Assembly (NCBI GenBank): GCA_034530875.2
Contig: JAVRCJ020000061.1
Location: 1 to 30,247, forward strand
Direction of reading: 5' to 3'
Source of the DNA: Nostoc sp. DedSLP01
Lineage (GTDB): Bacteria; Cyanobacteriota; Cyanobacteriia; Cyanobacteriales; Nostocaceae
Length of the DNA stretch: 30,247 bases
Under the pieces are notes generated by a model, which worked only from the letters and a program-made list of their open reading frames with translations, was not told where the DNA came from and searched no databases. The position numbers were made by a program, and so were the translations under genes. Below are positions 6,730-30,101 of the stretch, one piece after another (position 1 is the stretch's first letter; each line of letters begins with the position of its first letter).

Positions 6730-6748
6730 GAGGTTTTAGCTGGCTATT

Positions 6749-6782
6749 TTTCCCCGACTTTTCCCCGATCGCATTTTACAAT
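6749..6782 (+). promoter_or_regulatory. TCCCC direct-repeat promoter, copy C (CheY-like regulator)
   Basis: TTTCCCCGACTTTTCCCCGAT-N7-TACAAT. Confidence 0.65.
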
Positions 6783-6835
6783 AATTCTTAATCGGTCAAG
6801 CTAATGGGCATCACATATCATGCGTGAGTGACACT

Positions 6836-7210
6836 ATGAACAGAAATATCTTGATTGTTGATGATGAAGAAGATGTGCAAGCGATCGCAAAACTGGGATT
6901 AGAAATGGGTGCTGGGTGGAACGTCTTGACTGCTTGTTCTGGTCGGGAAGCCTTGAATGTGGCTGCTAACTTTAAACTTGATGCGATTTTATTAGATATG
7001 ATGATGCCTGACATGGATGGGCGTGCTACCCTGCAACAACTCAAGGCTAACCCCGTTACTCAGCCAATTCCGGTAATTTTACTAACTGCCAAAGTCCAGG
7101 ATTCAGATCGCGATAGCTTTACAGGTTTAGATGTAGCTGCTGTATTTGCCAAGCCTTTTCGTCCTCTGAAACTGGCAGGACAAATAAGCGAAGCATTGGG
7201 TTGGTCTTAA
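6836..7210 (+). CDS. Single-domain (CheY-like) response regulator
   Basis: ILIVDDE, AILLDMMMPDMDG, LLTA, AKPF all intact. Start at ATG 6836 or GTG 6824. Confidence 0.93.
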   Translation: MNRNILIVDDEEDVQAIAKLGLEMGAGWNVLTACSGREALNVAANFKLDAILLDMMMPDMDGRATLQQLKANPVTQPIPVILLTAKVQDSDRDSFTGLDVAAVFAKPFRPLKLAGQISEALGWS

Positions 7211-11815: not shown

Positions 11816-11864
11816 CATCAAGAGTAAAATCAATCTCATATACTACGAGTGCTTCAAGTTAAAT

Positions 11865-13367
11865 ATGAAACTTATTTGCCAGGGATGCAGTGTAATTTTC
11901 CAAGTATTAGCCACCATCGCTTTAGCTACTCCTGCACTTGCAGAAATCGTTAACATTAACCTGTTGCAACTTAACGATATTTACGAAATTACTCCTGTGG
12001 AAGGTGGGACTCGTAGCGGTTTAGCGCGTGTTGCTACTCTACGACAGCAACTTTATAAAGACAACCCCCGCACCTACACGGTGTTAGCTGGAGATGCTTT
12101 GAGTCCATCGGCTTTAGGAACTGCCAAAATTAACAGTACACCTTTAGCTGGCCAGCAAATGATAGCTGTAATGAACGCTTTGGGGTTAAATTATGCGACT
12201 TTTGGGAATCACGAATTTGACCTACCAGAAAACCTCTTCTACCAAAGATTGCAAGAATCGCGATTTCGCTGGGTTTCCAGTAATGTATCTGATAGTACAG
12301 GACAAGCCTTAAAAGGCGTTCCTCGCTCGATAGTATTCAATGTGAAAGGCGATCGCGGTGCTGTAGTTAGGGTAGGATTAATTGGCGTTACCCTTGCAGA
12401 GAATCAGTCTAAATACGTCAGCTACACCGATCCGATTGCAACAGCTCGACAGCAGGTTAGCAAACTCAAGGGTAAAGTTGATATCATAGTTGCTCTTACC
12501 CATCTCTCAATTGAAGATGACCGCAAACTAGCCGAAAACGTACCAGAAATTGACATAGTTCTGGGAGGTCACGAGCATGAAAATATCCAGCAATGGCGAG
12601 GTCGGGATTTTACACCGATTTTTAAAGCAGATGCCAATGCACGTACAGTTTACGTTCATCAATTGAGTTACGATACGATCGAAAGAAGCCTTGCAATTAA
12701 CTCTCGGTTAATACCGATTACCGATAAAATTCCTGAAGAACCAAAAACGGCAAAGATAGTCCATGAATGGGTAGAAAAAAGCTATCAAGCATTTCGCGCC
12801 AACGGTTTTGAGCCAAATCAGAAAATTGCTGAAGTGAAATTTGCTTTAGATGGTTTAGAAGCTAGCGTCCGCAATCAGCAAACAAAGCTGACAGAATTAA
12901 TTGCCTCAGCAATGTTAAAAGAAGTACCTGATGCAGATTTAGCTATATTTAATTCCGGTTCAATTCGACTTGATGACGTGATTTTACCAGGCCCAATTAC
13001 TCAATATGATGCGATTCGCATCTTGCCTTTTGGCGGCAAAGTTGTTGCAGTAGAGATAAATGGTGACGTTTTGCAGAGAGTATTAGATCGAGGGCAAGCC
13101 AATAAAGGCAGTGGTGGTTATCTGCAAACAGCCAAAGTTAGTCAACAACCAAATTCTAAAAATTGGTTGATTCAAGGTCAACCTCTTGACCCTCAACGCA
13201 CTTATAAAATAGCGATCGCTGAGTTTTTAATCAGTGGTAAAGAAAAAGGATTAGACTTCTTAAACCTTCAACAACCGGGGATTAAATTCATTGCTGAAAA
13301 ACGGGATATTCGTTTTGCACTCATTGACCAGTTAAAGTTTCAAGCAACTAATATTGAGAGTAAATAA
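11865..13367 (+). CDS. Exported bifunctional metallophosphatase/5'-nucleotidase
   Basis: Signal peptide ending PALA-E; NDIY, AGD, GNHEFD, LTH, GGHEH motifs; C-terminal nucleotidase domain (NSGSIR, LPF). ATG at 11865 preferred. Confidence 0.9.
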   Translation: MKLICQGCSVIFQVLATIALATPALAEIVNINLLQLNDIYEITPVEGGTRSGLARVATLRQQLYKDNPRTYTVLAGDALSPSALGTAKINSTPLAGQQMIAVMNALGLNYATFGNHEFDLPENLFYQRLQESRFRWVSSNVSDSTGQALKGVPRSIVFNVKGDRGAVVRVGLIGVTLAENQSKYVSYTDPIATARQQVSKLKGKVDIIVALTHLSIEDDRKLAENVPEIDIVLGGHEHENIQQWRGRDFTPIFKADANARTVYVHQLSYDTIERSLAINSRLIPITDKIPEEPKTAKIVHEWVEKSYQAFRANGFEPNQKIAEVKFALDGLEASVRNQQTKLTELIASAMLKEVPDADLAIFNSGSIRLDDVILPGPITQYDAIRILPFGGKVVAVEINGDVLQRVLDRGQANKGSGGYLQTAKVSQQPNSKNWLIQGQPLDPQRTYKIAIAEFLISGKEKGLDFLNLQQPGIKFIAEKRDIRFALIDQLKFQATNIESK

Positions 13368-13495: not shown

Positions 13496-14797
13496 CTAAA
13501 TTGGGAGAGTAATAATAAACTTCGTTCCCTTCCCAGAGATTGACAAGCAGTTAATTTGTCCATTGTGTTTATCGACAATAATTTGATAGCTGATAGCTAA
13601 TCCTAGTCCAGTTCCCTTACCCACAGGCTTAGTTGTAAAAGATGGCTCAAAAATTTTAGCTTGCACCTCAGGAGGCATACCAAGAGCATTATCTTCGATG
13701 CAAATTGTAACGGTTTTTTGGTGGTGATCGCACGATGTAGTAATAGTGATGGTGTAATCGCAAGCAGCTATCTCCCGCTCCGATCTGCTTTGATAAAGGT
13801 CATCAAATGCATCAATAGCATTAGCAATAATATTCATAAACACCTGGTTCAGTTGTCCTGGATAACAACTAATTGGAACTAACTCACCGTAATGTGTAAC
13901 AACTTCAATTTTAGGACGGTCTCCTTGGTCTTTGAGTCGGTGTTTTAATAACATTAAGCTACTATCGATTCCTTCATGAACTTGAAACTCAACCTGAGAT
14001 GAAATATCGGCTCGAGCAAAAGTTCTTAAAGAGAGACTGATATCCTTAAGACGATTAATTCCCTGCTCCATTGATAAGAGAAGTTTTGGTAAATCTTCAG
14101 CCAGATACTCTAGGTCAATTTCTTCAATAAGTTCTTCAATTTCTGGATCTGAGTTTGGTAGCTTTTGCTGTTGCAAATTCACCAAACGAAGCAGATCCTT
14201 TGTATATTCCTCAATATGGGAGCAATTTCCACTAATAAAACCAATTGGGTTATTAATTTCATGACCGATCCCTGCAACAAGTTGTCCAAGAGCTGACATT
14301 TTCTCACTCTGGATTAGTTGTAGTTGGGTTTGTTGTAACTGTTGTAAAGATTCGCTTAATTCGGCAGTGCGTTCTTGTACCCGTTGTTCTAATGTCCGCG
14401 TCAGATGGGAAATTTTCAGGTGTAACTTTAATCGAGCAATTACTTCTTCTTGTTGAAAAGGTTTGGTAATGTAGTCAACCGCACCAATTTCCAGCCCTTT
14501 CACTTTGTCTGTGGCATCCGACAAGGCACTCATAAAAATGACCGGAATGCTCTTAGTTATGGCATTGGCTTTCAGCCTGCGGCAAGTTTCAAACCCATCC
14601 AGACCTGGCATCATAATATCGAGGAGAATCAGATCGGGATGGGCGTATTCTATTTGTTCGATCGCCGACTCTCCATCGGTTGCCATGAGCGCTTTCCAAC
14701 CACATCCTTGAATCGCTTCAGATAGCACTTTCAGATTATTTGGATTATCGTCCACCAACAAGATATGCATTGGCTGCAAAAGAGTTTCGGTCATCAT
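13496..14797 (-). CDS. Hybrid histidine kinase (N-terminal REC, HisKA, HATPase), no sensor domain
   Basis: [50 protein letters not shown]. 4-bp overlap with the upstream CHASE2 kinase. Confidence 0.93.
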
Positions 14798-17655
14798 GAA
14801 TGTGACTCCGTTGTTACAAATGATTTGAGGAACTTACGGATTTTGGCGGTCTGGAAGTTGGCAGTGAGTTTGTTTAACTCAGTTGCGAAAGGAGTTAACT
14901 TACTGTCTTGCTCCATTAACTCTTTTATGGTTCCCTCAATTGCCGGAATATCTCCCATCATTGCCAGATGATAAAGTTGTTGCAAAATATCTTGAGACGG
15001 CAAAATTAATTCAGTATTATCTACTTGCTCATTCTTGCTCAATAATTGCTGCGGTTTAGATTGGCTATAGATCCAGTCAACTTTTAGTAAGGAACCCAGC
15101 GCATTGAAAAGTTCATCAATTTGGATGGGTTTGGGCAAGAATGCTGTTGCTCCTGCTTGTAAACTCCGTTGTCGATTTTCTTCAAATACACTGGCACTAG
15201 AAACAATAATTGGAATCGAACGAGTTAGAGGATTTTCTTGTAAGCGAACCATCAATTCAAAACCATCCATATTGGGCATGGCTAAATCAAGCACGATCGC
15301 ATCCGGTTGATGTTGAGTTGCCATCTGTAGCCCATGTTTGCCATCGCTTGCTTCCAAGATTCGACAGCCAATTTCTTGTAGTAGAGCAGTCAACATAAAA
15401 CGATGATTGCGATCGTCATCGACAATCAGAATTTGTGGCGCGCTACCCCGAACCCCGGTGATTTTCTGATGGGTTGAGGCGATGGTTCCTGGATACCAGT
15501 CATGGGAAATTGGTACTGGTACTGTCAAATCCAACCAAAATAGACTTCCTTCACCCAAGCAACTCTGCACTTGAATTTCGCTGCCCATCAATGCCGCAAT
15601 TCTTTGGCTGATTGCTAATCCCAAGCCAGTACCTTCAGATTTCCGTCCAGCCTCACCTACCTGCTCAAAGGCCAAAAAGATTTTCTCTAATTGGTCTGAT
15701 GACATTCCAATACCTGTATCTTCAATCTGGAACCGAATCTTGGCGGTTGGTGATTGGTTATTGGAAGCGCTCAATGTTGAGTGTTGAGTGTTAACTGAGA
15801 AGTTATTCTGTTCGTTCTCTTGTCCACCCAGTAGATCTACTTTGAACGTCACGCTACCGTTATCTGTAAATTTGATAGCGTTGCCTAGTAAGTTGATTAA
15901 CACTTGCCGCAGTCGCTTTTCATCTACTTGAATAACAGCTGGTAGGCAATTATCTATTAAGACGTTAAATCCAATTCCTTTCTGCTCGGCTCGGATACTG
16001 CAAATCTCAGTCACACCATGTAAGAAAGTCGGCAGATGTACGTTGGTGGTAACCAATTCTAATTTCCGAGCTTCAATTTTTGAAAGGTCGAGAATGTCAT
16101 TGATTAGCATCAGCAGGTGAGAACCGCATTGGTAGATAATCTTGATCCCTTCGCGATTTTTATCTGTGAGGTTGGGCGATACCTCTAGCACCTGAGCAAA
16201 ACCAAGGATACCATTGAGGGGCGTGCGTAGCTCGTGGCTCATATTGGCTAAAAACTCGCTCTTTGCTTCGTTAGCAGCATCAGCAGCTTGCTTTGCCTCC
16301 AAGAGTTCGCTAGTTCGCTCTTCAACTTTGAACTCTAAGGTTTTGGAATAATCTAATAATTGAGCATTGGCAATTTCTAGTTGCTGATTCGCTTGTTCTA
16401 ACTTCTGTTGTTTATAGGTATTGATTGTGGCAATTACGCTGCTGATGAATGCAGCTAAGGCAGGTGTTACCGGAATCAGAATACCTTGTAACAACATCCC
16501 GTAGCCACCACCAATAAATGCACCAGTGATACCTACAGTTGCCCAAAGAATTTTGCCGCCTGGAATCTGCCACTTAGTACGCGTACTGACTAACCACCAA
16601 CTACCACTAGAACCGACAAAAGACCAGAAAATAATCCACAACGACACAGCCATACCAGAAACACCGTGCAGATTTGCTTTCCCTGTTTTTGCTCCTTGCA
16701 CCAGTTGATGGGCGATATTGGCATGGATAATTACACCAGGTGTAGGTTTTTGGGCAGAAATTAAGGAAGAACTAAACGGTGTGCTAAAGAAATCATTGGT
16801 ACTGGCAGCAGTCGATCCAATAAACACCATGCGATCGCGCATCAGATTTGCTGGAATTTTTCCTGCCAACACATCCCGCATCGCAACTGTGCGAAACGAT
16901 GCTTCGGAACCATACCAGTTGAGCAAAATTTGATAGCCGCCGACATCAGTATCGGCATAACCTGCTTCTTGATTTTGTAGTGGCAGGTAGATTTGATTGC
17001 CTAATCGATACTTCTGCTGCTTTTCGTCAACAGATTCTAACGTTATCTTTTCGGCTTCAAGGTACTTGAGGGCTACAAGAGTTGCCAGTCCTGCTTTAAC
17101 TTTGTCTTCTTCTTTAGCATCGGTTGCCGTCAGTAAGGCACGACGCACAAAGCGATCGCTATCCAACACCAAATCTGCCAAGCCTACGCGATCTGCTTTT
17201 TTCAATTCTGGTGCGGGATTGACACGCTCTCCAGTAATTTTCTCGACGCCAATCAAATTGGTATTGTCCCGAAAGACTTTCACAAGTTGCTCGTGTCCGC
17301 TGCCTTCTGGTAAATCTCGATAGAGATCCAAGCCGATGGCGCGTGGTTGTTGCGCCTGAATTTTTTCTAGTAATTGTGCTAGCGACCAATCTGGAATTGG
17401 CCATTTACCAACTGATTGGATATCTTGTTCGTCAATTGTAACAATGACGATTTCTTCAGCCATAGTATTTTGCCAACACCCAATAAGGGCGGGTGCTTCA
17501 CAAGATCGCTGTCGCATCCATTCATCACGAAGTTTCCACTCAGGCAAATTGAAAAGTCCCAACGACTGCGCCAGAAGAACTGTTAGGGCAACGCTGGGAG
17601 TAATAATCAAAACACTGCGAGAGCGTTGGATGAAAGTTTGGAATTTGCGCCACAT
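14794..17655 (-). CDS. CHASE2-domain hybrid sensor histidine kinase (TM-CHASE2-3TM-HisKA-HATPase-REC)
   Basis: [11 protein letters not shown]...[33 protein letters not shown]2 motifs; three TM helices; [15 protein letters not shown]-terminal receiver. Confidence 0.93.
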
Positions 17656-17740
17656 AATTCCACAGGCTTAATTAAATAATATTGATTAGCATTCGTGAGT
17701 CATGACTCCACTAAATACTTGTCTGGGATTGGGTGGCTTT

Positions 17741-17810
17741 GAGAAAAGGTAACGGTTAAAGAGAAAAAGAATTTAACAAACTTCTTCCCCCTTTCCCTTT
17801 ACCTTTTCTC
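17741..17810. repeat. Inverted repeat/hairpin just downstream of the DUF928 gene
   Basis: GAGAAAAGGTAA (17741-17752) and TTACCTTTTCTC (17799-17810) are perfect 12-bp complements, with imperfect pairing inside. Confidence 0.75.
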
Positions 17811-17819
17811 TCACCTGTT

Positions 17820-18740
17820 TTAATTCGCTGAGGCTACTAAGGGAACTGTTGCAATATCCTTTAAGCTAACTGACGACAGAAGTTCTTCCCATTGCTTGAC
17901 AATAGTTGCATTTTTGGGTTGGGCAGCGTGCAGTACAGCCAAGGTTGCCACACAGTCGTACCAGACTCCATTTTTACCAAAAGCAGCCGCACGCTTTAAA
18001 GCATCTTCCTGCTGCATTGCTGTTGCCAGTTCAGCAGTAGGCTGGATACGCTCAATCCAACCATCAACGTAAGGCGTACTTGGGCTGAGCGTTCCGTCCA
18101 CTTTCAATGCCAGGAACCACTGGTAGTTTTTACCAACGGCTAAAGCGGGTGCGTCGGCTGGTAATTTGATGGCGATGGTTCCAGCTTTTTGTGCTACAGG
18201 AATGCTCATTTGATACTGTGTATTGCCAGCTTCATCTTTAAGGCTGAACACAGCTTCTTGCGCATTAGAAGCGGGAAGGTACACCAGAATTGTGGGACGT
18301 TCGGACACGGTTGTGCCATAGAAGCTTTGCGGTAGGAGTGCAATTAGGGCTGCGGGCCCTCCTGCTGCTATAGTCGATGAATTCAAGTAGTAAGTACCTA
18401 CACGGGAAGCCCCTCCCGATGCTTGTCTGGGGGCGCTGTTACCTGGAGCAGGGGTAAAGAGGTTGCCGCGGGAAGCTCCTCCTGTTGCTTGTCTGGGAGC
18501 GCCGTTACCTGGAGCAGGGGTAAAGAGGTTGCCGCGGGAAGCTCCTCCTGTGGCTTGTCTGGGAGCGCTATTTTTAGAGGGCGGGGTAAAGAGGTTACCG
18601 CGGGAAGCTCCTCCTGTGGCTTGTCTAGGGGCACTATTTTTAGAGGGCGGGGTAAATGTTACAGCATAGGCACTAGCCCATATACTGCTAGCAATCAGAG
18701 CCATGATGCTCAATGCACTAGTTAAATATCGACGTTTCAT
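17820..18740 (-). CDS. Exported DUF928 domain protein with N-terminal tandem repeats
   Basis: Signal peptide MKRRY...ASAYA; GGASRG motifs; LIALLP...GTTVSERPTILVYLP, LAVGKNYQW, GWIERI, GVWYD, WEELL.SV.L. ATG at 18740 preferred over 18782. Confidence 0.88.
   Translation of the reverse strand: MKRRYLTSALSIMALIASSIWASAYAVTFTPPSKNSAPRQATGGASRGNLFTPPSKNSAPRQATGGASRGNLFTPAPGNGAPRQATGGASRGNLFTPAPGNSAPRQASGGASRVGTYYLNSSTIAAGGPAALIALLPQSFYGTTVSERPTILVYLPASNAQEAVFSLKDEAGNTQYQMSIPVAQKAGTIAIKLPADAPALAVGKNYQWFLALKVDGTLSPSTPYVDGWIERIQPTAELATAMQQEDALKRAAAFGKNGVWYDCVATLAVLHAAQPKNATIVKQWEELLSSVSLKDIATVPLVASAN
18402..18656 (-). repeat. 66-bp (22-aa) in-frame tandem repeat, ~3.9 copies
   Basis: FTPPSKNSAPRQATGGASRGNL x2, FTPAPGNGAPRQATGGASRGNL, FTPAPGNSAPRQASGGASR; DNA period 66 bp (18475/18541/18607). 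Confidence 0.97.
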
Positions 18741-18929
18741 GATCTTTGTCCTCATCTGATTCAACAGCGATCGAAAATACATTCAAATCACTGCACTAAA
18801 AACTCATGGAATACTTTTAAACGCTATTCAGATATGGGAAGGCTACTAGCATTTATAACCGAATTTCGATTCCAATTCCATAAATTCGCTGTTTTTTTAA
18901 GTGCATCTTATAGCAGTAATTATACGTAT

Positions 18930-21491
18930 TTAAAGCCAGTTGCCAACCAAAACAAAGGCAGACCAAAAAAACGGATCGCTAAAATCAGTTTGGCGAATTA
19001 GGTTAATTTGTGCCTGTCGTAGCGCTTCAGCTTTAGTGATTTTAGGTTGGCGTAGTTGGTCATAGAAGCGAGTCATGAGCATTTCGGCCGCTTTGTCTTT
19101 GACTGGCCAGAGTGTGGCAATGGTAGAACGCGCACCAGATTTGACAGCCAAGCCTGCTAATCCCAAAACGGCGCGATCGTCACCAGTGGCAGTATCACAG
19201 GCACTCAGTACCAATAATTCGATCGCTTTTGATGAATTACCACTACGATTTTTCAGGAGTTCGGACAACTCTTTGACACTAACTTGTCCGTCCCAGGTAA
19301 GTAAAAATGTATCTTCGAGACGAGAGCTAAACTGTCCGTGGGTTGCTAAATGGACAACATTGGCTTTACTAGATTTGATGCGATCGGCAAGGGCAAGATT
19401 TGTGAATTTTTGGTTGAGTAACATCGAAGATGGCACTGTTTCGGAGATTTCTTTGACTTCTGATTCCACAGCTGGCAAGGCACTAAAACCATTGCGAGAT
19501 TGACTAATACCGCCAACAACTGCATCAATCTGGTTTTGCTGAAACGATCGCGCCGCCATCAGTTGCAATCCCGGTGAGAGCGCCACAGCATATTTTTCAA
19601 TCAGATATCGATTACCGTCATACAAGGCTGCTATTGGGATGTTCCGCAACCGACCATCCAAAACAAATACTAATGTCTGAGTGTCTTTAAAGGCTCCATC
19701 TGCTTCTGCCGGACGAATCAGCCAGTCATAAATTTGCTGGGACAATCGCTCCCGAACTTTTGAGTCTGAAACTGGGTTGAGAGCCACGAGGAAGTTATCT
19801 AGAGTTTGCTCAATTTCAGCTTGAGATTTTTGAGTGGCATAATAACGCAGGGGTTGTCCAGCCTTGGAGAGAATTACTCCTAAGCGATCGCTTAAGATAA
19901 TCGGATAAATCACTGTTGCCGTGGAGTCAACTTTGTCAATCTGCTGTGCTTTATCTAAACAAGCTTCGCGGAAAAAGTTATCAAGTTCGGCGATTTGCAG
20001 TGACTCAATCAATTCCCGCGCTTGCGTTAATGCAGCCTGGGTTGGTTGCTCGTCCAGAAGTAAACTTACCAGTTCCCGATAGACAGGCTCCACACTTTCG
20101 CGGAAAGAAAACTGTACATCGGGGTTGACACCAACCATATCTGCTCGTAGTGCCTTTAATGATTTAACTGCTTCGGTATAAGCTGTAATTGCTTGTTGGC
20201 GATCGCCTTGTTGTTTGTACAATTTTCCTACCTGCCATGCTGATTGAGCGATCAGATCGTCAGCTTGGAGTTGACGGGCTATATTGAGAGATTTTTCAGC
20301 TAGTTCCTGTGCCTGGGGCCACTGTTTTGTATGGTTGTAGAGTTGTGCCCATTGATAGAGTGCATAAGCTTGGGCAGTTCCATCCTGAATTTTTTCGGCA
20401 GACTTAACTGTATCTGCCATAAGTTCTGCCAAATCTTTGTTTGGTAAAACTCGCTCTGGATTTTCCAAGCGATTTAAGGTGGCGACAAAATTAATTGCTG
20501 CATTCAAGGAACTATGACTGGGTGCTAATTGTGACAACTGTTGTCGTAATTGGGGTGCTAGGGGAATGGCATATTCGAGTTTGTCGTAATCCACTAATAA
20601 TTTGAAATGGGCTAAACGCGCTTGTAAAGCTTCATTGGGGTTTGTAGCTGCTGTTTGGGCATCTTCAAAGTAATTTAATGCTGCTTCTGGGTGGTGAAAG
20701 TCAGCAGCAACTTTCCCTAAACTCGAAAGAATGGAACTTAACTCGGTTTTAGCGGCAATTTTGTTGGCTGTGGCTAGACTTTGTTCTAAAACTTCCTGGC
20801 TTTGAGGATCGCCGATGGCGTGCAAAGCTAAACCAAGCGATCGCAACCCACTAACTTTAACTTCCGAATCTGGCATTGCTGAAAGCTTTTGCGTCAGCGC
20901 TTCTAACTGTTGTTTGGAACGACGGTAAAATCCCAAACTTTGTAAGGCTTGTGCCTGGTTGATTTGACTGCCTAAGCTACCGATTGTATCGCCTGAGCGT
21001 TCGTAATATTTTTGAGCTTGTTGCCAAATTTCTATGGCGGTTTCAGCTTTATCTGTACGTAGTTTTAAATTGGCTTGAGTATTCAGTATTTGCGCCCAGA
21101 TAATCGCATCGGCAGAAGGTTTAGCCGTTTGCAAAATTTTTAGGCTTTGTTCGATAGATTGTCTAGCTGCTTCCCACTGGTTGAGTTCCTGTTGCGCTAA
21201 CGAGAGGTAACTCAAACTCAAGGCTTCGTTGGTGCGATCGCCTTGACTATGGTAATTTTGTACTGCCCTTTGCCAAGCCGTCGCGGCTTCACTAAAGTTG
21301 CCTGAACTGTACAGTTTCCGCCCCTGTTCTAGCCAATTAGTAGATTCGGAAGTAGATACTGACACATTCAACGCAGAATTAGTTGCTACGCTTACACTTG
21401 CTCTAGCTGGGGTAATTGTCACTGCTAAACACAAGCTCAAAATACTCAGACTGATATATAACCAGCGATGTCGTTTAATTTGCAAATTCAT
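18930..21491 (-). CDS. Exported TPR-CHAT (caspase/HetF-like) protease
   Basis: Signal peptide ending PARA-S; TPR-like helical repeats; catalytic VVHLATHG and LLVLSACDTA; ATLWPV.D, KAEALRQAQ, PFFWSAFVLVGNWL. Confidence 0.93.
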   Translation of the reverse strand: MNLQIKRHRWLYISLSILSLCLAVTITPARASVSVATNSALNVSVSTSESTNWLEQGRKLYSSGNFSEAATAWQRAVQNYHSQGDRTNEALSLSYLSLAQQELNQWEAARQSIEQSLKILQTAKPSADAIIWAQILNTQANLKLRTDKAETAIEIWQQAQKYYERSGDTIGSLGSQINQAQALQSLGFYRRSKQQLEALTQKLSAMPDSEVKVSGLRSLGLALHAIGDPQSQEVLEQSLATANKIAAKTELSSILSSLGKVAADFHHPEAALNYFEDAQTAATNPNEALQARLAHFKLLVDYDKLEYAIPLAPQLRQQLSQLAPSHSSLNAAINFVATLNRLENPERVLPNKDLAELMADTVKSAEKIQDGTAQAYALYQWAQLYNHTKQWPQAQELAEKSLNIARQLQADDLIAQSAWQVGKLYKQQGDRQQAITAYTEAVKSLKALRADMVGVNPDVQFSFRESVEPVYRELVSLLLDEQPTQAALTQARELIESLQIAELDNFFREACLDKAQQIDKVDSTATVIYPIILSDRLGVILSKAGQPLRYYATQKSQAEIEQTLDNFLVALNPVSDSKVRERLSQQIYDWLIRPAEADGAFKDTQTLVFVLDGRLRNIPIAALYDGNRYLIEKYAVALSPGLQLMAARSFQQNQIDAVVGGISQSRNGFSALPAVESEVKEISETVPSSMLLNQKFTNLALADRIKSSKANVVHLATHGQFSSRLEDTFLLTWDGQVSVKELSELLKNRSGNSSKAIELLVLSACDTATGDDRAVLGLAGLAVKSGARSTIATLWPVKDKAAEMLMTRFYDQLRQPKITKAEALRQAQINLIRQTDFSDPFFWSAFVLVGNWL

Positions 21492-21545
21492 AGGTAATTA
21501 CTCATAGTTTGGCAATTTACTCGATTTAAAGAGTTCTTGAGATAA

Positions 21546-24008
21546 CTATTTAGCTACAAGTGCAGCACAGGTTAAAGGCGATCGCACATTAGTGGGTGAT
21601 TGTGCTGCAACTAACTCAACTTTTCCCTGGGCGTTACGATGCCAAGAAGTAGCTTGGATAAGAGTTTGCGAAGATGAGGGTTTTTGAGCTTGTGTTTTGC
21701 GGAATGCCCAGACATCACGCACATCAAGCCAAGTGCGATCGCTCCTTACTTCCTGTGTAGGATTTTGCGGTACACCACCGCGTCCCGTAGCCACAAATTT
21801 ACTGCTGTCATCGCTGGCGCAACCTGTAGCAATTTGCTGCGATGGATCTGTGACATTTGCGGGTAGTTCAATTAAGCCAGAATTAGGATCGACGCCGATA
21901 TTATTGATTTGGACTGTGCCACTAACACCAAATTGGGAACTCGCAGTAATGTCATTTTCTGGGGTGAGTGCGGGACGAAATTGCAATCCGATGATGCCCT
22001 GAGTGGTGATTTGAATATTGCCACCCCTTCCTCGGACTGCGTTAGCAATAATGTCGCTGTTTTCTAATCCGACAAAAATCGGAGCATTGATATTAATATT
22101 ACCTCCATTACCATTACCGCCTGCGGTGGCTGCGATCGCGCTATTACCACGCAGCATTAACAACTTCCCTACTTGTAAGGCAAGATTACCGCCATTACCT
22201 GATTCTGTCTGTGCCTGGATGCTTGCTTGACGGTCTAAAAGGATGGTATTAGCTTTGATATTCAGAATGCCACCATTGCCGCTACCTTGGCTAGTAACAC
22301 TTACAGCACCACCATCTCTCAATATCAGGTTGGGCGTGGAGAGGTTCGCATTACCGGCATTAGCAGTTAGTAGATTTGGCAGGCCAAATATTCGCTGTAA
22401 TTGCGGGGGTAAGTGCAGAACAGATGAGTTAATACTGCTGTTATTACTCCGACTGCGGCCGCTAATCTCGATTGATTCCGTGGCATTAATGTTTAAATCG
22501 CCCCCATTACCTGTAAAGAATGTAGTTGCCGCAACTACTCCCCCATCAAGAACTTGTAACTTAGCAGTATCCAGCGTCAAAGTTTTGGCGTTTCCGGTAG
22601 CCAACGTGGTTGAGCTAATGTTGCTGTAGAGTCCGAAGGGATTTTCTCCCATCACAGTAGTACGATTGTTGCGAATTGTGACTTGACCGCTAGAACCACT
22701 GCCAAACGTAGCTGAGGACAATGAAGCTCCACTTGATAGTACTAAACTATTGCCATTGACGAAGATATCCCCTGCATTCCCTGAAGCATAGGTAACGGAG
22801 GTAAGATTGCTAACACCAGTAGGTTTGATTGGCGAAAAGCCAGATATGTCAATTGCTGCCGCCTCAATCTGGATGTTGCCACTCGCACCTCTTCCCAAGG
22901 TTACACTATTCAATCCTGCTCCCTTCTGGAGTGTCAGCCGAGGAGTAATAACGTTGATATTACCACTAGTTCCCATAGCTAAGGTTTCAGCGCGAATCCC
23001 ACTGGCAATTGCCTTATCATCTGTGCCAATCAGATCTATCGCTGCTGATGCTTGCAGGTGAATTTCTCCAGCAGCTAAATAACCGAAATTTTGTGACAGT
23101 AGCAGCGAACCATCAGTAAATTTAATATGTTGCCCTTGAACCTGTACAGAACCAGCATTGACTCCACTAACGTCCAATAGTGACTTTTGTGCTAGCTGGA
23201 TATCGCCAAAGCTTTGCCCATTTTCATATCCCAAGGTATAGCCCTGTAGTGTTGGTATCAAGCGGACTAGCCCTGCACCACTTACACTGCCTAATTCTAT
23301 TCGCCCTTGCTTGGCAGTTAGGGTTGCCCCATTCAGATCCAAATTTCCGCCCACCAAAGCAAGGGTTTGCCGTGGCTGTACCCGCAGTTCGCTAACGCTG
23401 GGAGCCACAACGATAGGAGGCTGTCCAGTCGGATTGCTCAAGGAGTGTCCTGTGCCTTGAACGCCGATCGATGCAGGATTAGTACCCATTTGCAAACCAA
23501 TGGGAACATTGATGCTCAATAGTGGCGTAGTTTGGGAATTAATCGCCCTAAACTCGATACCATCGCTAAATTTAATACTGTCAGCAGTTGTACCAATAAA
23601 CGAACCCCCGATGTTGAGTTGGGCGTTGGCTCCAAAGATAATGCCGCTAGGATTGATTAAAAAAAGACTAACGGGGTTGTTGCTGTTAATCGTCTGAATC
23701 AAACCATCAATGTTAGATAGATTACCACCTGTGACACGGCTGAAGATGGTAGAAATCTGAGGCGTGTTGACTAAATCAAAAGTAGCTGAACCTTTCGTGG
23801 GAATCGAGAACTGCTGGAAACTATGAAATAGATTGCTGTTAACAACACTACCATTGGTAATAGTAAAGTTATTGCCTGTTTGAGAAACTGTAGTATTGAG
23901 AGTGCCATCTGGCGTGACCTGGGCATTGGCAAAACCGCACCACAGAAATATCCCACCTGTCAAAACTCCATAAATTAAATTCCACCAAACAGAGGGCGCT
24001 TTCATCAC
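21546..24008 (-). CDS. TpsA-type filamentous haemagglutinin-family exoprotein (copy 1)
   Basis: Signal peptide ending ANA-Q; TPS domain NLFHSF, RVTGG, NPSGIIFG; G/N-rich beta-helix repeats. Start at GTG 24008 or ATG 24005. Confidence 0.92.
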   Translation of the reverse strand: MMKAPSVWWNLIYGVLTGGIFLWCGFANAQVTPDGTLNTTVSQTGNNFTITNGSVVNSNLFHSFQQFSIPTKGSATFDLVNTPQISTIFSRVTGGNLSNIDGLIQTINSNNPVSLFLINPSGIIFGANAQLNIGGSFIGTTADSIKFSDGIEFRAINSQTTPLLSINVPIGLQMGTNPASIGVQGTGHSLSNPTGQPPIVVAPSVSELRVQPRQTLALVGGNLDLNGATLTAKQGRIELGSVSGAGLVRLIPTLQGYTLGYENGQSFGDIQLAQKSLLDVSGVNAGSVQVQGQHIKFTDGSLLLSQNFGYLAAGEIHLQASAAIDLIGTDDKAIASGIRAETLAMGTSGNINVITPRLTLQKGAGLNSVTLGRGASGNIQIEAAAIDISGFSPIKPTGVSNLTSVTYASGNAGDIFVNGNSLVLSSGASLSSATFGSGSSGQVTIRNNRTTVMGENPFGLYSNISSTTLATGNAKTLTLDTAKLQVLDGGVVAATTFFTGNGGDLNINATESIEISGRSRSNNSSINSSVLHLPPQLQRIFGLPNLLTANAGNANLSTPNLILRDGGAVSVTSQGSGNGGILNIKANTILLDRQASIQAQTESGNGGNLALQVGKLLMLRGNSAIAATAGGNGNGGNININAPIFVGLENSDIIANAVRGRGGNIQITTQGIIGLQFRPALTPENDITASSQFGVSGTVQINNIGVDPNSGLIELPANVTDPSQQIATGCASDDSSKFVATGRGGVPQNPTQEVRSDRTWLDVRDVWAFRKTQAQKPSSSQTLIQATSWHRNAQGKVELVAAQSPTNVRSPLTCAALVAK

Positions 24009-24224
24009 TCAGTTTCCACTATCTATATTAATAGAATTCCCTAGAATGACATTAGTCTTAAACACTGCCAACAGTTTTACCAGTTATTTTGTTTGAGTAG
24101 AAAATACGGCTTAACGCAGACATCGTTGTGATATAAAGTTCGGACGATCGCTACATCTACAGCAAAAATCCTCAAAGCCTCTTGTCCCCCTGAAGCTTCC
24201 TACTCCCTTGCCCTATAAAGGGCT

Positions 24225-26687
24225 TCAGTTGGCAACCGCAGCACAAGTTAACTGCGACTGTACTTGTTTGAGAGATGGGGTTGCAACTAACTCAACTTTG
24301 CCTTCAGCATTCCGATGCCAAGAAGTAGCTTGGATGAGAACCTGTGCTAATGTGGGTGCTTGAGTAATTACATCACCCGTTTTTTTGTATCCAGAGATGT
24401 CCCGGATGTCAGACCAAGTGCGATCGCTAATCACCTGTTGATTCGGATTTTGCGGCGCACCGCCCCTTCCCGTAGCTATAAAACGACTACCTTGATTTGC
24501 CGAACAACCTGTAGCAATTTTTTGAGATGGATCGGTGATATTTGTTGGCAGTTCTACTAAACCCGAATTTGGATCGATACCGATGGTATTGACTTGAACT
24601 GTGCCACTTAAGCCAAATTGGGAACTGGCAGTAATATCATTTTCCGGCGTCAATTGGTCGCGGTACTCCAGTCCTAAGATGCTTTGAGTGGTGATTTGGA
24701 TATTGCCACCCCGTCCTTGCACAGCGTTGGCAATTATATCGCTGTTTTCCAGGCCCACAATCACGGGCGCATCGATCGCAATATTGCCACCATTGCCACT
24801 ACCACCTGCTTCAGCACTGACGAAACTACCATTGCGCATTAACAATATGTCTCGCAGTTGCAGATTGATGTTGCCTCCTTCTCCAGCTTTTGTCGATGCT
24901 GAAATGTTTGCCCTATTGTTGAGTTTAAGAGTATTGGCATTAATTTGCAGAGTGCCAGCTGTACCAGAGCCAAGGTTTTGCACAAAAACCATTGCACCAT
25001 CACTAATGTTAAAAATTGGGGTACTAATAGTGGTATTACCTGCATTCGCCCTGGAAATTTTACTAAACAGACCAACAGGACGAACAGCCGTACCAATATA
25101 GCTGGGATTTTCTGCATCTTTTACACCACTAACATGAATCGATTCAGAGGCATTGATAGTCAGGGAACCCGCATTTCCTAAAATTATGCTAGAAGCAGAC
25201 ACTCTACCACCACCTTCCACTGACAGCCTGCGGGTATCGATTTTCAGATTCCCTGCATTACCAGACCCGAATGTGGCAGTAGAAATGAGACTAAAATAAC
25301 TACCGCTTGGAGTTCCCGCATTTGTCACCTGAATTGTATCTGCATTGACAGTCAAATTGCCGCCTTTGCCAGAATTATAAGGTCTGGCTGCTATATTAGC
25401 TCCAGCCGAAACAGAAAGGTTTTGAGTGGAAATGAAAATATTTCCACCATTTCCACTGGCATAGGAAGCGGCTAATATTTGGCTTACCGAGCGAAATGGA
25501 GAAGGATCGCCAAATGCAAAACCGTTGACTCGCATTTCATTAGTATTTACTACAATATCGCCAGCCGACCCTGTGCTAAAAGTACGGTTAAAGATATATC
25601 CACCGCGATCGATATTCAATTTTGGAGTCGTAATAATCACATTTCCTGCCGCACCAGTAGATGTAGTTTCATTCACTAAACTGCTGGAACTCTTAAAATC
25701 AGGAGACTTACCGATGATATCCAAGAACTCTGTAGCATTAATTGTAATATCACCAGCAGTTTGGTTACTGCGATTTTGTACTAATATCAGGGAACCATCT
25801 CGAATGCTCACCTGTTTACCTTGAATTTGGATGGCTCCTCCACTTCCTCCACTGAGATCCCGTGTAGATGCTAAAGCTCGTTGGCTGATTGCAATATTGC
25901 CGAAACTCGATCCATTGGGATAAGTCAGCGTCAATCCTTGAGGGATGAAATTGAGAGCGACGTTGGTGTTAGTAATGCTACCGAGTTCTATTCGTCCTCC
26001 TGGTGCGGAGAGTAAGCCTCCATCCAAGGCAATATTTCCACCTACTAATGCCAGGGTTTTTTCAGGTTGCAGCTGTAATCCTCTTGTACCCAGGTTCAAT
26101 CCAGAAACCTGAAGCGAGTCGCCTAATTGGGCATTGTGTCCTGCTCCTTGAGAGGTAATTGGCCCTGGATTGCTACCAAATTGCAAGCCAACGGGGACGC
26201 TGATAGTCAATAAAGCAGTCGGTGATATGGCATTGGTTGCACTAAATTTCAATCCATCCGCAAATACTACGCTATTGGCAGTTGTCCCTACAAAGGAACC
26301 CCCAATACTCAATTGAGCATTAGACCCAAACAGAATACCCGCAGGATTAAGCAGGAACAAGTTAGCACTACCGTTGGCGCGGATTAGCCCATCAATATTG
26401 GATATGCTACCACCTGTGACGCGGGCGAAGATGTTTTGCACATCGATGGAATTGTCGAACAGGGCAGAACCACCCGTAGGTATAGAGAATTGACTGAAGC
26501 TATGGAATAGGTTATTGCCGCGCTGGTTACCGTTGCTGATGGTAAAGTTATCGCCATTTTGGGAGACTTTGGTGTTGAGGGTGCTGTCAGATGTCACCTG
26601 GGCGTTGGTAGCATTGCACCACAGGAGTATACCAGCCAAAGCTATTCCACTTCTCAATATGCTATTTACCAAGCTGATTGCTTTCAT
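24225..26687 (-). CDS. TpsA-type filamentous haemagglutinin-family exoprotein (copy 2)
   Basis: Signal peptide ending TNA-Q; NLFHSF, RVTGG, NPAGILFG; beta-helix repeats; C-terminus similar to copy 1. Confidence 0.92.
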   Translation of the reverse strand: MKAISLVNSILRSGIALAGILLWCNATNAQVTSDSTLNTKVSQNGDNFTISNGNQRGNNLFHSFSQFSIPTGGSALFDNSIDVQNIFARVTGGSISNIDGLIRANGSANLFLLNPAGILFGSNAQLSIGGSFVGTTANSVVFADGLKFSATNAISPTALLTISVPVGLQFGSNPGPITSQGAGHNAQLGDSLQVSGLNLGTRGLQLQPEKTLALVGGNIALDGGLLSAPGGRIELGSITNTNVALNFIPQGLTLTYPNGSSFGNIAISQRALASTRDLSGGSGGAIQIQGKQVSIRDGSLILVQNRSNQTAGDITINATEFLDIIGKSPDFKSSSSLVNETTSTGAAGNVIITTPKLNIDRGGYIFNRTFSTGSAGDIVVNTNEMRVNGFAFGDPSPFRSVSQILAASYASGNGGNIFISTQNLSVSAGANIAARPYNSGKGGNLTVNADTIQVTNAGTPSGSYFSLISTATFGSGNAGNLKIDTRRLSVEGGGRVSASSIILGNAGSLTINASESIHVSGVKDAENPSYIGTAVRPVGLFSKISRANAGNTTISTPIFNISDGAMVFVQNLGSGTAGTLQINANTLKLNNRANISASTKAGEGGNINLQLRDILLMRNGSFVSAEAGGSGNGGNIAIDAPVIVGLENSDIIANAVQGRGGNIQITTQSILGLEYRDQLTPENDITASSQFGLSGTVQVNTIGIDPNSGLVELPTNITDPSQKIATGCSANQGSRFIATGRGGAPQNPNQQVISDRTWSDIRDISGYKKTGDVITQAPTLAQVLIQATSWHRNAEGKVELVATPSLKQVQSQLTCAAVAN

Positions 26688-26798
26688 TGTTTAGTTTGCC
26701 CTTTATATCTAAAATTCCAAATTCCCTAAATTCATGACTCCGAATACCAGAGAAGAGTGAGTCGTATTCATAATCAGAGGAATTGTCCATCGCCTCTA

Positions 26799-28619
26799 TC
26801 ACAATGCTGAATACCGCACCGAGAAGTACAAACCATTTTCCTGGAGCGATCGCTTTTCATCGTCTACCGATATCAAGGGAATACCCCAATCGACTCTCGC
26901 AGATAATTTATCGCTTTGTTGCCACAACAGCCCTAACCCAGTACCTACCAACGTACTAGGTGATGGATTGTCGCCCTTGGTATTCCAGCCTGTACCCACA
27001 TCAATGAATGGTGTCAGTTGTAGTACTCCTCCTAGTTTGGAGGCACGTACAATGGGCAACCGGAATTCAGCTGAAAACAACATTCCATTATCTGTGAGTA
27101 ATGCATCCTGGCGATAGCCCCGCACGCTCAGCTGTCCGCCAAGGCCAAATTGTTCTAAAGGCACGAGGGAATCTGCTGCTAGTTGTAAATCACCTCTAGC
27201 TAAAAACAGAGTGTCTGGTGCGAACTGCCGCACCCATTGGGCTTGCCCCCGCCAAGCAAAAAAGCGACTATCAGGGGCATCTCGATTGACATTGGCATCA
27301 AACCAATCTACCCCGACGCTAAATTGCGATCGCGCTGCAAAAACTTGTTTGCTGTTGCGTTGCGTATACTCTTGAGTAAAACGCAACGCAGAGATTTTGG
27401 TTTTGCCGTTGGCATCTGCACCAGGCGATAAAGGAAAGCCGCCAATATTATCCAGACCTAACTCTGTTTGGCTTTCTTCGCGTGAGAATGATACCCCCAC
27501 AGCTAATTCCTGAGTTGGCTTTTGCACTAACGGTTGCCGATAACTGAATTCGTAAGATTTACTGTTTGACTGAATATCAAGAACGTTGAATGGTTTTTCA
27601 ATTACGCGGTTCCACCCTTGGTTAAAACCAAAGGAGACAGTGCCATTGCGAGCATTAATCGGCAATGTGTAATTGAGATTGATTGTATTACTGCCATCTG
27701 TATTGGCATATCCCACACTCAAGGTATCGCCAAAGCCCAGTAGATTGGCTTCTTGCACATCCACACCGCGACGAAAACTGCCAACACTAGGCGATCGCCC
27801 ATTATCTAAAGTTGTTGTCAGTGAGAAAGTATCGGCTTCTTGAACCTCGACTTGTAATATATTGCTTCCAGGACGTACACCCATCTGCAACTCAGCTGAT
27901 AGGTTTTGAATGTGCGGATCGAGGCGCAGCAGTTGCAGTTTTTCTATTAAACGAGGCACATTCAGAGGGGTTTTGGCACCGAGTCTGATGCGATCGCGAA
28001 TGTATTGACTGCGCAATCGACGATTGCCGACGATTTTAATTTCTTCCAAACTGCCTTCGACTACCTGAATTTTGATAACTCCAGCTTCTAGTGTCTGCGG
28101 TGTAATTAAAGCCCCAGTAGTTACATAGCCTTTATCTGTGTAGAGCTTGGCGATCGCATCTTTGACTTGTAACAACTCTGTAAATGATACTTCCCGCCCA
28201 ACAAAGCCGGCCGTAATCGCAGCAAAATCTTCTGGTTTGAAAACTGTACTGCCAACAACTTCAATGCGATCGACTTGGAATTTAGTATTAGGATCGTCCT
28301 CTCCTACAGCCGGCCGATCCGGTAATTGTGGGGAAGGAAGTAATTGATTCTGCTGTGATGACTGCGGTAGTACATCCCCAGATAAAGGAGTGGTAGGGAT
28401 ATCTTCTATCCGACCAGGTGGTAGCGTTTGCGGATTAGAAGTTTGGGCATAGGCGCAGTTCGTCGTAGATATGGCTTGATAACAGTTGCACAATACTGCC
28501 AGAACAATGCCCAATCTTAAAGGTCTAAGTGTTACTATGCGAGGTTTAAGTTGCTGTCTTTGCGTATAGTTAATTATAGATGCTGTATTCAGATTTAATA
28601 AGTATAAATGCTTACGCAT
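26799..28619 (-). CDS. ShlB/FhaC/HecB-family TpsB outer-membrane transporter
   Basis: POTRA motifs (IEVVGSTVF, LY.DKGYVTT, IQVVEG), SVRGY lid-lock motif, C-terminal beta-barrel. Start codon uncertain. Confidence 0.93.
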   Translation of the reverse strand: MRKHLYLLNLNTASIINYTQRQQLKPRIVTLRPLRLGIVLAVLCNCYQAISTTNCAYAQTSNPQTLPPGRIEDIPTTPLSGDVLPQSSQQNQLLPSPQLPDRPAVGEDDPNTKFQVDRIEVVGSTVFKPEDFAAITAGFVGREVSFTELLQVKDAIAKLYTDKGYVTTGALITPQTLEAGVIKIQVVEGSLEEIKIVGNRRLRSQYIRDRIRLGAKTPLNVPRLIEKLQLLRLDPHIQNLSAELQMGVRPGSNILQVEVQEADTFSLTTTLDNGRSPSVGSFRRGVDVQEANLLGFGDTLSVGYANTDGSNTINLNYTLPINARNGTVSFGFNQGWNRVIEKPFNVLDIQSNSKSYEFSYRQPLVQKPTQELAVGVSFSREESQTELGLDNIGGFPLSPGADANGKTKISALRFTQEYTQRNSKQVFAARSQFSVGVDWFDANVNRDAPDSRFFAWRGQAQWVRQFAPDTLFLARGDLQLAADSLVPLEQFGLGGQLSVRGYRQDALLTDNGMLFSAEFRLPIVRASKLGGVLQLTPFIDVGTGWNTKGDNPSPSTLVGTGLGLLWQQSDKLSARVDWGIPLISVDDEKRSLQENGLYFSVRYSAL

Positions 28620-29054: not shown

Positions 29055-30101
29055 ATGAAAATATGGATTTGGCTGATGCTGGTGGTGTTGATGGCAGTTA
29101 CAGTCGTGGGTAGCAGAGGTAGCACATTTTTTGAACAGCCTCCCTCACCAGAAATTGTTAGGAGCATTCCAGCAGAAACTCCCCAACCACAGCCAGAGTC
29201 AGACAAAGTTGACAATACCCTAAAAGTGTCTGCCGATCGCTTGTTAGCCCATATTCAAAAATTGAATTTTCAGCGCTATACGACAACAGAGCGATCGCGT
29301 ACTCGCACATATATCATCAATGAACTGAAAAAATTCGGCTGGAAGCCCAAATTAGAAAAGTTCTCCGACGGTGTGAATGTTTTTGCCGAACGTGCAGGAA
29401 CGAACAAAGCCGCCAAAGCAATTCTCATAGGAGCGCATTACGACACTGTTGCCTCTTCTCCAGGTGCCGATGATAATGCTAGCGGTATCGCCGTAATGCT
29501 GGAAATTGCTCGGTTACTCGGTTCCCATCCTACAGCACGGACTCTACAACTAGCTTTTTTCGATCGAGAAGAAGCAGGACTTTTAGGTAGTCAGGCTTTT
29601 GTCAGCAACCAAGCACGCTTGGAGAATTTGGGCGGGGCGATCGTTATGGATATGGTAGGTTATGCTTGTTACACTGCTGGGTGTCAACAATATCCAGCGG
29701 GATTACCTGTTACCCCACCTAGCGAGAAGGGCGATTTTTTAGTGGTAGTTGGCGATACAGAACATTTACCTTTACTAAATACCTTCCAGAAAATTCCGCC
29801 AACTGGGCTAAATAAACAAGAATCAAATCTGCCAGCAGTTCTGACACTGCCGATTCCTCTCAAAGGTTTACTGACGCCAGATACCCTACGCAGTGACCAC
29901 GCACCGTTTTGGTATCAGGGAGTCGGTGCTGTACTGGTGACAGATACCGCAAATTTACGTACTCCACACTATCATCAACCCAGCGACCTGCCAGCGACTA
30001 TTGACCGTTCTTTCTTTACAGGAGCAGCCCAGATTGTGGTCAATGCTACAACTGCTTTATTAGAAAAAAATGAAGTTTTAGTAACTCAACCAGCAACTTA
30101 A
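29055..30101 (+). CDS. M28-family zinc peptidase, exported or membrane-anchored
   Basis: N-terminal hydrophobic segment; GAHYD, GADDNASG, EEAGL, DMVG, SDH, YH motifs. Confidence 0.9.
   Translation: MKIWIWLMLVVLMAVTVVGSRGSTFFEQPPSPEIVRSIPAETPQPQPESDKVDNTLKVSADRLLAHIQKLNFQRYTTTERSRTRTYIINELKKFGWKPKLEKFSDGVNVFAERAGTNKAAKAILIGAHYDTVASSPGADDNASGIAVMLEIARLLGSHPTARTLQLAFFDREEAGLLGSQAFVSNQARLENLGGAIVMDMVGYACYTAGCQQYPAGLPVTPPSEKGDFLVVVGDTEHLPLLNTFQKIPPTGLNKQESNLPAVLTLPIPLKGLLTPDTLRSDHAPFWYQGVGAVLVTDTANLRTPHYHQPSDLPATIDRSFFTGAAQIVVNATTALLEKNEVLVTQPAT

Follow-up and report, generated by a model that had tools for sequence, protein, structure and literature searches.

Within a 30,247-nt window of Nostoc sp. 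DedSLP01 (assembly GCA_034530875.2, contig JAVRCJ020000061.1; the window is the whole stretch of DNA that was analysed), seven genes at 13496..28619 encode a two-partner secretion (TPS) transporter, TpsB, two TpsA proteins, a TPR-CHAT protease, a DUF928 protein, a CHASE2 hybrid histidine kinase and a REC kinase. Our central finding is that the DUF928 protein looks like a multi-copy peptide precursor, whose product is likely a repeated N-terminal peptide of 21-22 residues ending in Arg. Its gene belongs to a fixed core of four genes (TPR-CHAT, DUF928, CHASE2 kinase and REC kinase), while TpsA and TpsB are variable. We propose, with about even confidence, that CHAT cuts DUF928 after Arg and that the peptide acts on CHASE2. 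The gene set is conserved and apparently unstudied.

Under this proposal, the TPR-CHAT protease, predicted to be exported, would cut DUF928 after the Arg that closes each unit. The freed peptides would bind CHASE2 and modulate both the hybrid kinase and the REC kinase, with the hybrid kinase handing phosphate to the REC kinase encoded by the overlapping gene. With three to seven unit copies in this clade, each precursor would yield a larger dose of peptide. More tentatively, the C-terminal tail of TpsA may stay in the periplasm behind TpsB, bind the TPR part of CHAT and gate the protease, with the cut being triggered at the variable part of TpsA on the cell surface. This gating is the weakest step of the proposal, and the tail could be either a gate of CHAT or its substrate.

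An earlier note on this DNA had suggested an envelope signalling system in which CHAT cleaves DUF928, CHASE2 reads the product and a kinase phosphorelay carries the output. This reading is supported in part: DUF928 emerged as a CHASE2 partner and a plausible CHAT substrate, and the suggested cut is here refined to Arg-ended units. The system itself is retained as the four-gene core, with TpsA and TpsB varying around it (11/74 loci without TpsA). A kinase is one of several CHASE2 outputs in the genome.

A conserved four-gene core

All seven open reading frames (ORFs) were intact and co-oriented on the minus strand according to ORF calling and Pfam. In order from TpsB to the REC kinase, the gaps between them measured 111, 216, 54, 147, 164 and -4 bp, in agreement with the short gaps (-4 to about 216 bp) given in the earlier note. 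The features are as follows:

26799..28619, minus strand: TpsB outer-membrane transporter, POTRA_2 and ShlB barrel, 606 amino acids (Pfam)
24225..26687, minus strand: TpsA1, 820 amino acids, with predicted signal peptide, TPS domain, variable passenger and conserved C-terminal tail
24228..24647, minus strand: TpsA1 C-terminal region (residues 681-820), Cys728/Cys815 and Gly-Arg741-Gly-Gly; putative periplasmic tail
21546..24008, minus strand: TpsA2, 820 amino acids, same plan as TpsA1 (Pfam)
21549..21968, minus strand: TpsA2 C-terminal region (residues 681-820), Cys730/Cys814 and Gly-Arg743-Gly-Gly
18930..21491, minus strand: TPR-CHAT caspase-clan protease, 853 amino acids, predicted signal peptide, His718/Cys765, Glu678 at the putative S1 site
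17820..18782, minus strand: DUF928 protein, 320 amino acids, probable start Met15, with predicted signal peptide, four units and an Ig-like plus helical core
18402..18662, minus strand: four tandem DUF928 units, candidate released peptides, residues 41-61, 62-83, 84-105 and 106-127 (sequence, orthologue profile)
14794..17655, minus strand: CHASE2-HisKA-HATPase-REC hybrid histidine kinase, 953 amino acids, four predicted membrane helices, predicted periplasmic CHASE2
13496..14797, minus strand: REC-HisKA-HATPase kinase, 433 amino acids (Pfam)

The orthologous loci analysed were the best 80 of 160 confirmed loci obtained with the DUF928 query, mostly from Nostocales, and gene order was counted in those with enough flank. 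A diverse set comprised 80 loci, hand-picked from 150 listed DUF928 matches in other genomes. All counts are uncorrected for kinship between sequences. CHAT lay directly upstream of DUF928 in 76/78 orthologous loci, one exception being a matter of gap size; the CHASE2 kinase followed DUF928 in 76/76, and the REC kinase came next in 73/73. The 4-bp overlap of the two kinase genes, already described in the earlier note, was the same in 65/74 orthologous pairs. TpsA was present in 63/74 loci (upstream in 59, inverted in two and downstream in two), and TpsB in 28/67, an undercount because the flank was 10 kb. Among the diverse DUF928 loci, a CHASE2 gene adjoined DUF928 in 57/80 and TpsB was found in 5/80. 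Promoter and terminator scans of the window ended at chance level (34 vs 29.9 and 18 vs 16.8).

Among 151 sampled genomes of the phylum, most of whose negatives are distant small genomes, DUF928 was found in 51, this CHAT subfamily in 52 and both in 50. Three genomes of the same family lacked DUF928, this CHAT subfamily and the TpsA tail jointly, each retaining one CHASE2 match. The same parts were also clustered, in other orders, on metagenome contigs of 55-78% GC.

The genome of Nostoc sp. DedSLP01 itself gave 14 CHASE2, 12 DUF928, 20 CHAT, 16 TPS-domain and four strong TpsB matches. Ten of its 12 DUF928 genes lay at most 8 kb from a CHASE2 gene, whereas 2000 random draws averaged 0.34 and never exceeded four. 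At the same distance, 7/12 DUF928 genes were near a CHAT of this subfamily and 9/16 TpsA tails were near such a CHAT (random-draw means for 8-kb proximity were 0.28-0.37). Gene clustering thus exceeds chance.

Several loci stood out for other reasons. One orthologous seven-gene set belongs to a 1.8 Mb plasmid of Nostoc linckia NIES-25, going by the title of its record (L023), and two Nostocales-like orthologues were found inside metagenome-assembled genomes labelled Acetobacteraceae and Actinomycetota (L044, L091), probably as mis-binned contigs. An unlabelled ORF of about 322 amino acids recurs between a CHAT-CHASE2 fusion gene and TPR-CHAT in five loci (L102, L105, L112, L116, L128).

The DUF928 protein carries tandem Arg-ended units

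The four units of the DUF928 protein begin at the predicted signal-peptide cut, follow the pattern xxFTP..P.Q..GGASR and end at Arg61, Arg83, Arg105 and Arg127. An AxA-like site lies two residues upstream of their first Phe. Orthologous DUF928 proteins carried 3-7 tandem units, spaced by 22 residues in 276/282 cases. The Phe-Thr-Pro start and the central Pro were nearly fixed and the middle was variable. GASR closed 279/279 internal units and Arg closed 79/79 last units, giving an Arg end in 358/358, although this invariance is partly by construction because the units were picked by this motif. The Arg also stood in the unit-end column of the alignment for 77/77 CHASE2-adjacent DUF928 proteins, and an alignment-free motif recovered it in 116/126 non-orthologous ones. 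As all six Arg codons are used at this position, selection acts at the protein level.

Single-unit DUF928 paralogues are built alike, with F.PP...P...GGxxR and then a Cys. The multi-unit, Cys-less proteins formed one clade in a quick tree (16 rows, including 10 of 80 orthologues; SH-aLRT support 82), within which the unit sequences differ in L205, L206 and L208. Shorter duplications, also Arg-ended, arose separately in other clades. The longest array seen has nine units, whose sequence differs from that of the units in the window (L208:1404-2813), and in one metagenome-assembled genome (L042) DUF928 is split into two ORFs of 174 and 139 amino acids.

In the AlphaFold model, the DUF928 unit is disordered (pLDDT below 50 at residues 15-27) and the remainder is a beta-sandwich with helices. 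In both structure searches the best match of the model was the C-terminal domain of MtxA (Foldseek E 2.7e-5), and the C-terminal fold of the MtxA family, an Ig-like part plus helices, is present in the DUF928 model. In VIA, the comparison with MtxA gave Z 9.9 and a root mean square deviation of 3.9 over 150 aligned residues (model residues 40-209). MtxA was the sole listed row with 150 aligned residues spanning both DUF928 subdomains, although the match is remote, with a Z margin below 1 over the next row (Z 9.1) and an identity of 11-12%. Kinship at the sequence level was not recovered: there was no PDB profile match, MtxA was absent from the 25 of 37 Pfam families shown, and the sequence lead was weak (Atlas at 0.78 only).

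An in-frame CHASE2-cyclase-DUF928 ORF was found between TPR-CHAT and tpsB on a metagenome contig of 78% GC (L254:2525-5305); it may be a true fusion or the result of a lost stop or read-through. Searches for longer DUF928 fusions returned one TPR-DUF928 protein and otherwise none, which is weak evidence.

The TPR-CHAT protease may prefer Arg

The protease matched the CHAT domain with high significance (PF12770, E 7e-64), and its clan CD His-Cys dyad in the caspase fold was intact, as the earlier note had read it. The dyad was kept in 196/196 CHAT domains and Glu678 in 195/196. Glu678 is located in the helix after the first core strand of CHAT, and Arg-specific clan CD proteases are described as binding the P1 Arg by an acidic residue on helix alpha1 (PMC4357240). 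From this position we infer a preference of CHAT for Arg, with Glu678 as the putative topological counterpart of the clan CD S1 acidic residue. An initial idea, equating the invariant Asp799 with separase Asp2151, was dropped.

The best natural PDB matches of the TPR profile were LGN, Pins and kinesin light chain, whose TPRs bind extended peptides. The top PDB match of the CHAT profile was 8rot (E 0.015), which its length and dyad numbering suggest to be DdvA. PDB sequence searches with the full CHAT, DUF928, CHASE2 and TpsA tail sequences gave nothing useful.

Export was assessed with a crude signal-peptide rule (not SignalP); this rule was also positive on 715/2950 long ORFs of the genome. 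It was positive for TpsB as well as for the four proteins on which the earlier note had placed signal peptides (TpsA1, TpsA2, CHAT and DUF928). Among orthologues, it was positive for CHAT in 73/74, DUF928 in 79/79, TpsA in 83/95 and REC kinases in 0/74. In genomes without the TpsA tail, short TPR-less CHAT proteins of 430-460 amino acids with signal-peptide-like N-termini were observed (L184, L185, L189, L190, L191).

TpsA proteins combine a variable middle with a conserved tail

The secretion genes have the parts of a type Vb (two-partner) system. TpsB carries a POTRA domain and a ShlB/Omp85 barrel, and both TpsAs have a signal peptide by the crude rule and an N-terminal TPS domain (PF05860, E 1e-67 and 2e-68; TIGR01901). 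One TpsB is probably shared among several TpsAs, given 16 TPS-domain genes and four strong TpsB matches. TpsA2 and TpsA1 are 32-47% identical in the middle and 63-76% at the C-terminus, and the p-distance across TpsAs was 0.56-0.57 for the middle and 0.30-0.31 for the tail. The C-terminal region of TpsA2 had no match in Pfam, NCBIfam or PDB sequences. Across tails, the Cys pair was kept in 112/119 and 48/53 and the Arg in 115/119 and 46/53.

A toxin-immunity reading (contact-dependent inhibition, CDI, or polymorphic toxin) was rejected, as the earlier note had also concluded. A polymorphic toxin would show the opposite of a variable middle with a conserved tail: here few parts are as well conserved as the C-terminus (0.30 vs 0.56 for the middle), no toxin family was matched, and the gene after TpsA is another TpsA or CHAT, not a small immunity gene.

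The tail was found in every one of the 42 genomes whose CHAT match reached E 2e-116 or better and in one of the 10 other CHAT-positive genomes, where the CHAT match is weak (43 genomes in total), with a profile biased to the TPR type. In the five of these 10 genomes that were examined, the 14 CHAT loci held long fusion-like ORFs or short TPR-less proteins (1.5 kb flanks), and four TPS-CHAT fusion proteins had neither tail nor TPR. This co-occurrence of tail and TPR, and the lack of both from the fusions, suggest that the two act as a pair replacing a covalent link. Across 37 orthologous pairs, tail distances followed CHAT better than those of the TPS domain did (0.63 vs 0.29).

Such TPS-CHAT fusions occur in L020, L146, L163, L176 and L264-L277, with an Ig-like region and a Pro-Thr linker before CHAT; the L020 ORF starts with a glycosyltransferase 2 domain. 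A single ORF beside tpsB at L249:5146-9870 (73% GC) joins a TPS domain, a tail-like segment, TPR and CHAT. Candidate standalone tails were discarded, since they proved to be fragments of genes or relics of deletions; two short relics, which retain the TpsA N-terminus and the end of the tail, lie directly upstream of CHAT (L029:6843-7256, L219:6664-7062).

The tail also lends itself to a reading in which signalling runs from the inside out, as in adhesin release of the LapD/LapG/CdrA kind: CHASE2 and DUF928 would hold or free CHAT, which would cut the TpsA tail at Gly-Arg-Gly-Gly and shed the filament. An Arg-Gly site is conserved in the tail, whose Cys pair is similar to that of the HMW1 anchor (PMC5422565), and a small residue followed by Arg-Gly is common to both candidate substrates. 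However, the transmitter kinase of the CHASE2 protein is intact and is served by its own downstream kinase, so that flow is more likely from the outside in; moreover, the four-gene core is kept where no TpsA is nearby and the TPS-CHAT fusions have no tail to cut. We therefore regard this reading as unlikely.

Possible co-divergence of the peptide with the CHASE2 receptor

An AlphaFold model of residues 16-420 of the CHASE2 kinase (pLDDT 92.5) places CHASE2 between one N-terminal and three C-terminal helices, consistent with the position between membrane segments that the earlier note had assigned; this arrangement would place the kinase in the cytoplasm. A fold search with the same model returned only membrane-helix bundles. 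The phospho-residues of both kinases are intact (HisKA His474 and REC Asp790 in the CHASE2 kinase; Asp60 and His179 in the REC kinase). The last ~100 residues of the CHASE2 kinase, after REC (window 14797-15120), form an unannotated tail with no NCBIfam match. Paralogous CHASE2 proteins of the genome carry cyclase, GGDEF, Ser/Thr kinase, cytoplasmic CHAT or AAA_35 domains, which makes the kinase one output of several. Six of them are CHAT-CHASE2 proteins, five adjoining a DUF928 gene.

Peptide divergence tracked CHASE2 profile columns 45-130 with a partial r of 0.47 across 77 adjacent pairs (0.58 in 43 C-terminal-output pairs and 0.31 in 34 N-terminal-output pairs), a segment that had been selected on the same data (an earlier 67 pairs). 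As controls, eight windows of the DUF928 core gave -0.04 to 0.19 and four other CHASE2 segments -0.17 to 0.16. The periplasmic part of CHASE2 also has 12 strongly conserved acidic positions, which would be compatible with an Arg-bearing ligand. We consider this co-divergence, drawn from sequence comparison, a lead rather than proof.

In a different role, DUF928 could serve as an adaptor or inhibitor in the periplasm without being cut, the Arg units binding CHASE2 or plugging the active site of CHAT after the model of the gingipain prodomain loop or securin, with repeats adding avidity. The DUF928 core likewise tracks CHASE2 (partial r 0.58), DUF928 is far more tightly adjacent to CHASE2 (57/80) than to CHAT (27/80), and an inhibitory loop that injects an Arg is described in gingipain (PMC4357240). 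[quoted passage not shown] We hold this alternative to be possible, if somewhat doubtful.

Evidence against the proposal

Set against release of a peptide ligand by CHAT are observations of several kinds. Thirteen held-out pairs from metagenomes failed to replicate the co-divergence (partial r 0.18, p 0.25). When the whole periplasmic CHASE2 was considered, the peptide showed no advantage over the best core window (bootstrap difference -0.27 to 0.06), and across 39 triples its tracking was similarly weak for CHASE2 (0.18) and for CHAT (0.10). As to specificity, the Arg-binding Asp position of separase, tentatively mapped as Trp+8, appears not to be conserved in CHAT (Ala in 103 and Glu in 26 of 196), and craspases of the same fold are described as cleaving after Met or Leu (PMC11506125). 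As to gene content, CHAT is missing from one orthologous locus (L059) and TpsA from the flank of 11/74, diverse DUF928 loci hold TPR-CHAT in just 27/80 and TPS genes in 23/80, and three genomes have CHASE2 without DUF928. Two of these (L195, L196) have a single CHASE2 with a Ser/Thr-kinase-like tail, which suggests a DUF928-independent class of CHASE2. The correlation of tail and CHAT distances may reflect linkage, as the interval of the distal/proximal control (31 two-TpsA loci) spans zero. Finally, deletion of mtxA is reported to give no phenotype under standard conditions (PMC4439547).

Another alternative is that the locus holds two separate pairs, TpsA-CHAT and DUF928-CHASE2-REC kinase, co-regulated and linked with no mutual action. 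The two pairs are found apart in many loci, and the mirror-tree controls gave no clear result. Yet CHAT adjoins DUF928 in 76/78 loci of the clade even with TpsA lost or moved, the parts are jointly absent from the three same-family genomes, and they cluster in different orders on the high-GC metagenome contigs; we thus consider mere linkage very improbable. Going beyond peptide release by CHAT, one may envisage a full relay across both membranes, in which a library of variable TpsA filaments keeps a securin-like tail in the periplasm to gate a separase-like protease, the protease is freed when the filament makes contact or is pulled, the multi-copy pro-peptide is cut, Arg-ended peptides form a class of CHASE2 ligands, and matched pairs insulate about ten paralogous channels. 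That this whole chain operates is a speculative extension, rather unlikely in its entirety.

Comparison with known systems

The closest parallel to the DUF928-CHASE2 pair is MtxA of Magnetospirillum gryphiswaldense, whose gene precedes a CHASE2-adenylate cyclase gene (PMC4439547; PDB 4z29). Both are exported-type proteins with an Ig-like and helical C-terminal module, a CHASE2 receptor gene next to them and a flexible N-terminal part, which in MtxA is described as protease-sensitive (PMC4439547). Unlike in DUF928, the N-terminal region of MtxA is folded and has no peptide repeats, and its description gives no CHAT or TPS link (PMC4439547).

At our locus the protease is a CHAT and the receptor a CHASE2 histidine kinase, unlike in the LapD/LapG/CdrA system, which has LapG as protease and LapD as cyclic di-GMP receptor. 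LapG is not known to be a CHAT protease. HMW1 and HxuA are described as having disulfide-locked periplasmic tails, and the CdrA tail as being cleaved by LapG (PMC5422565). CdrA/CdrB-LapG of Pseudomonas aeruginosa resembles our locus in combining a signalling link with a protease and a TpsA whose C-terminal tail has a Cys pair close to its end, the tail and the protease being periplasmic there and putatively so here (PMC5422565), but control there is inside-out via cyclic di-GMP, and DUF928 and CHASE2 are absent.

DdvA-DdvS of Myxococcus xanthus uses a periplasmic TPR-CHAT domain in transmembrane signalling; DdvA, however, is described as an anti-sigma factor in the membrane whose active site is incomplete, unlike the separate CHAT and CHASE2 receptor here (PMC11506125). 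DdvA-type factors combine a zinc anti-sigma domain in the cytoplasm with a membrane helix and a cognate ECF sigma factor. The CHAT of the window has just a short N-terminal hydrophobic segment, and no sigma gene was found in the window. The NsrA-CyaK/CyaD1/CyaD2-Clr system of Sinorhizobium meliloti, in which an outer-membrane protein passes a protein signal to CHASE2 receptors, differs in having cyclic AMP as output, no TPS pair with NsrA and, in its available description, no CHAT or DUF928 and no direct ligand named for CHASE2 (PMC13001267). Caspase-CHASE2 coupling was predicted for EACC2 (Kaur et al. 2021, PMC8195603), where the caspase is fused N-terminal of CHASE2; the available part of that source makes this a prediction and does not mention DUF928 or TPS. 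The CHASE2 of the window starts at residue 23, and it is paralogues elsewhere in the genome that have this fusion.

Separase-securin and craspase Csx29-Csx30 are similar as TPR-regulated caspase-fold proteases cutting an unstructured segment, and separase is described as cleaving after Arg and being held by an extended pseudosubstrate (PMC10317155, PMC9729208). They differ in acting in the cytoplasm, and the Arg-binding Asp position of separase is seemingly not conserved in CHAT. The gene set thus falls outside CDI, Lap, DdvA and EACC2 membership, yet it may work as a blend of them.

Neighbouring genes

Several genes flank the set in the window. A 5'-nucleotidase (11787-13367) converges on the REC kinase, and an M28 peptidase with an N-terminal hydrophobic segment (29055-30101) is divergent from tpsB. 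Further away lie a tandem pair of HtrA-like (trypsin-PDZ) proteases with a REC-LuxR regulator overlapping downstream (572-3026; Pfam), a REC-PAS-histidine kinase followed by a single-domain response regulator, a kinase-regulator pair not seen so far in the orthologous loci (5152-7210), and an alpha-acetolactate decarboxylase with an apparent signal peptide and a hisC-like aminotransferase upstream (7507-8289).

Significance

Our literature search, from which subscription journals were largely missing, found no study of this combination of genes. The component families are already known; DUF928 as a multi-copy peptide precursor is new here. In Lysobacter, a caspase homologue has reportedly been described together with an inhibitor that acts on a diguanylate cyclase of the CHASE2 type; it did not appear in our searches and, if real, would lower the novelty. 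In the searched literature, exported CHAT proteases of this type have no known substrate, and DUF928 is nearly absent, its CHASE2 neighbour being mentioned there. For CHASE2, no ligand is known according to PMC10581220.

The 22-residue peptide offers a concrete and cheap candidate ligand for CHASE2, and the protease gains a defined candidate scissile bond. The fold match further links DUF928 to MtxA, formerly considered specific to magnetotactic bacteria. Since roughly one in three genomes sampled from the phylum carries the gene set, frequently in multiple copies with different outputs, one result would explain many uncharacterised receptors.

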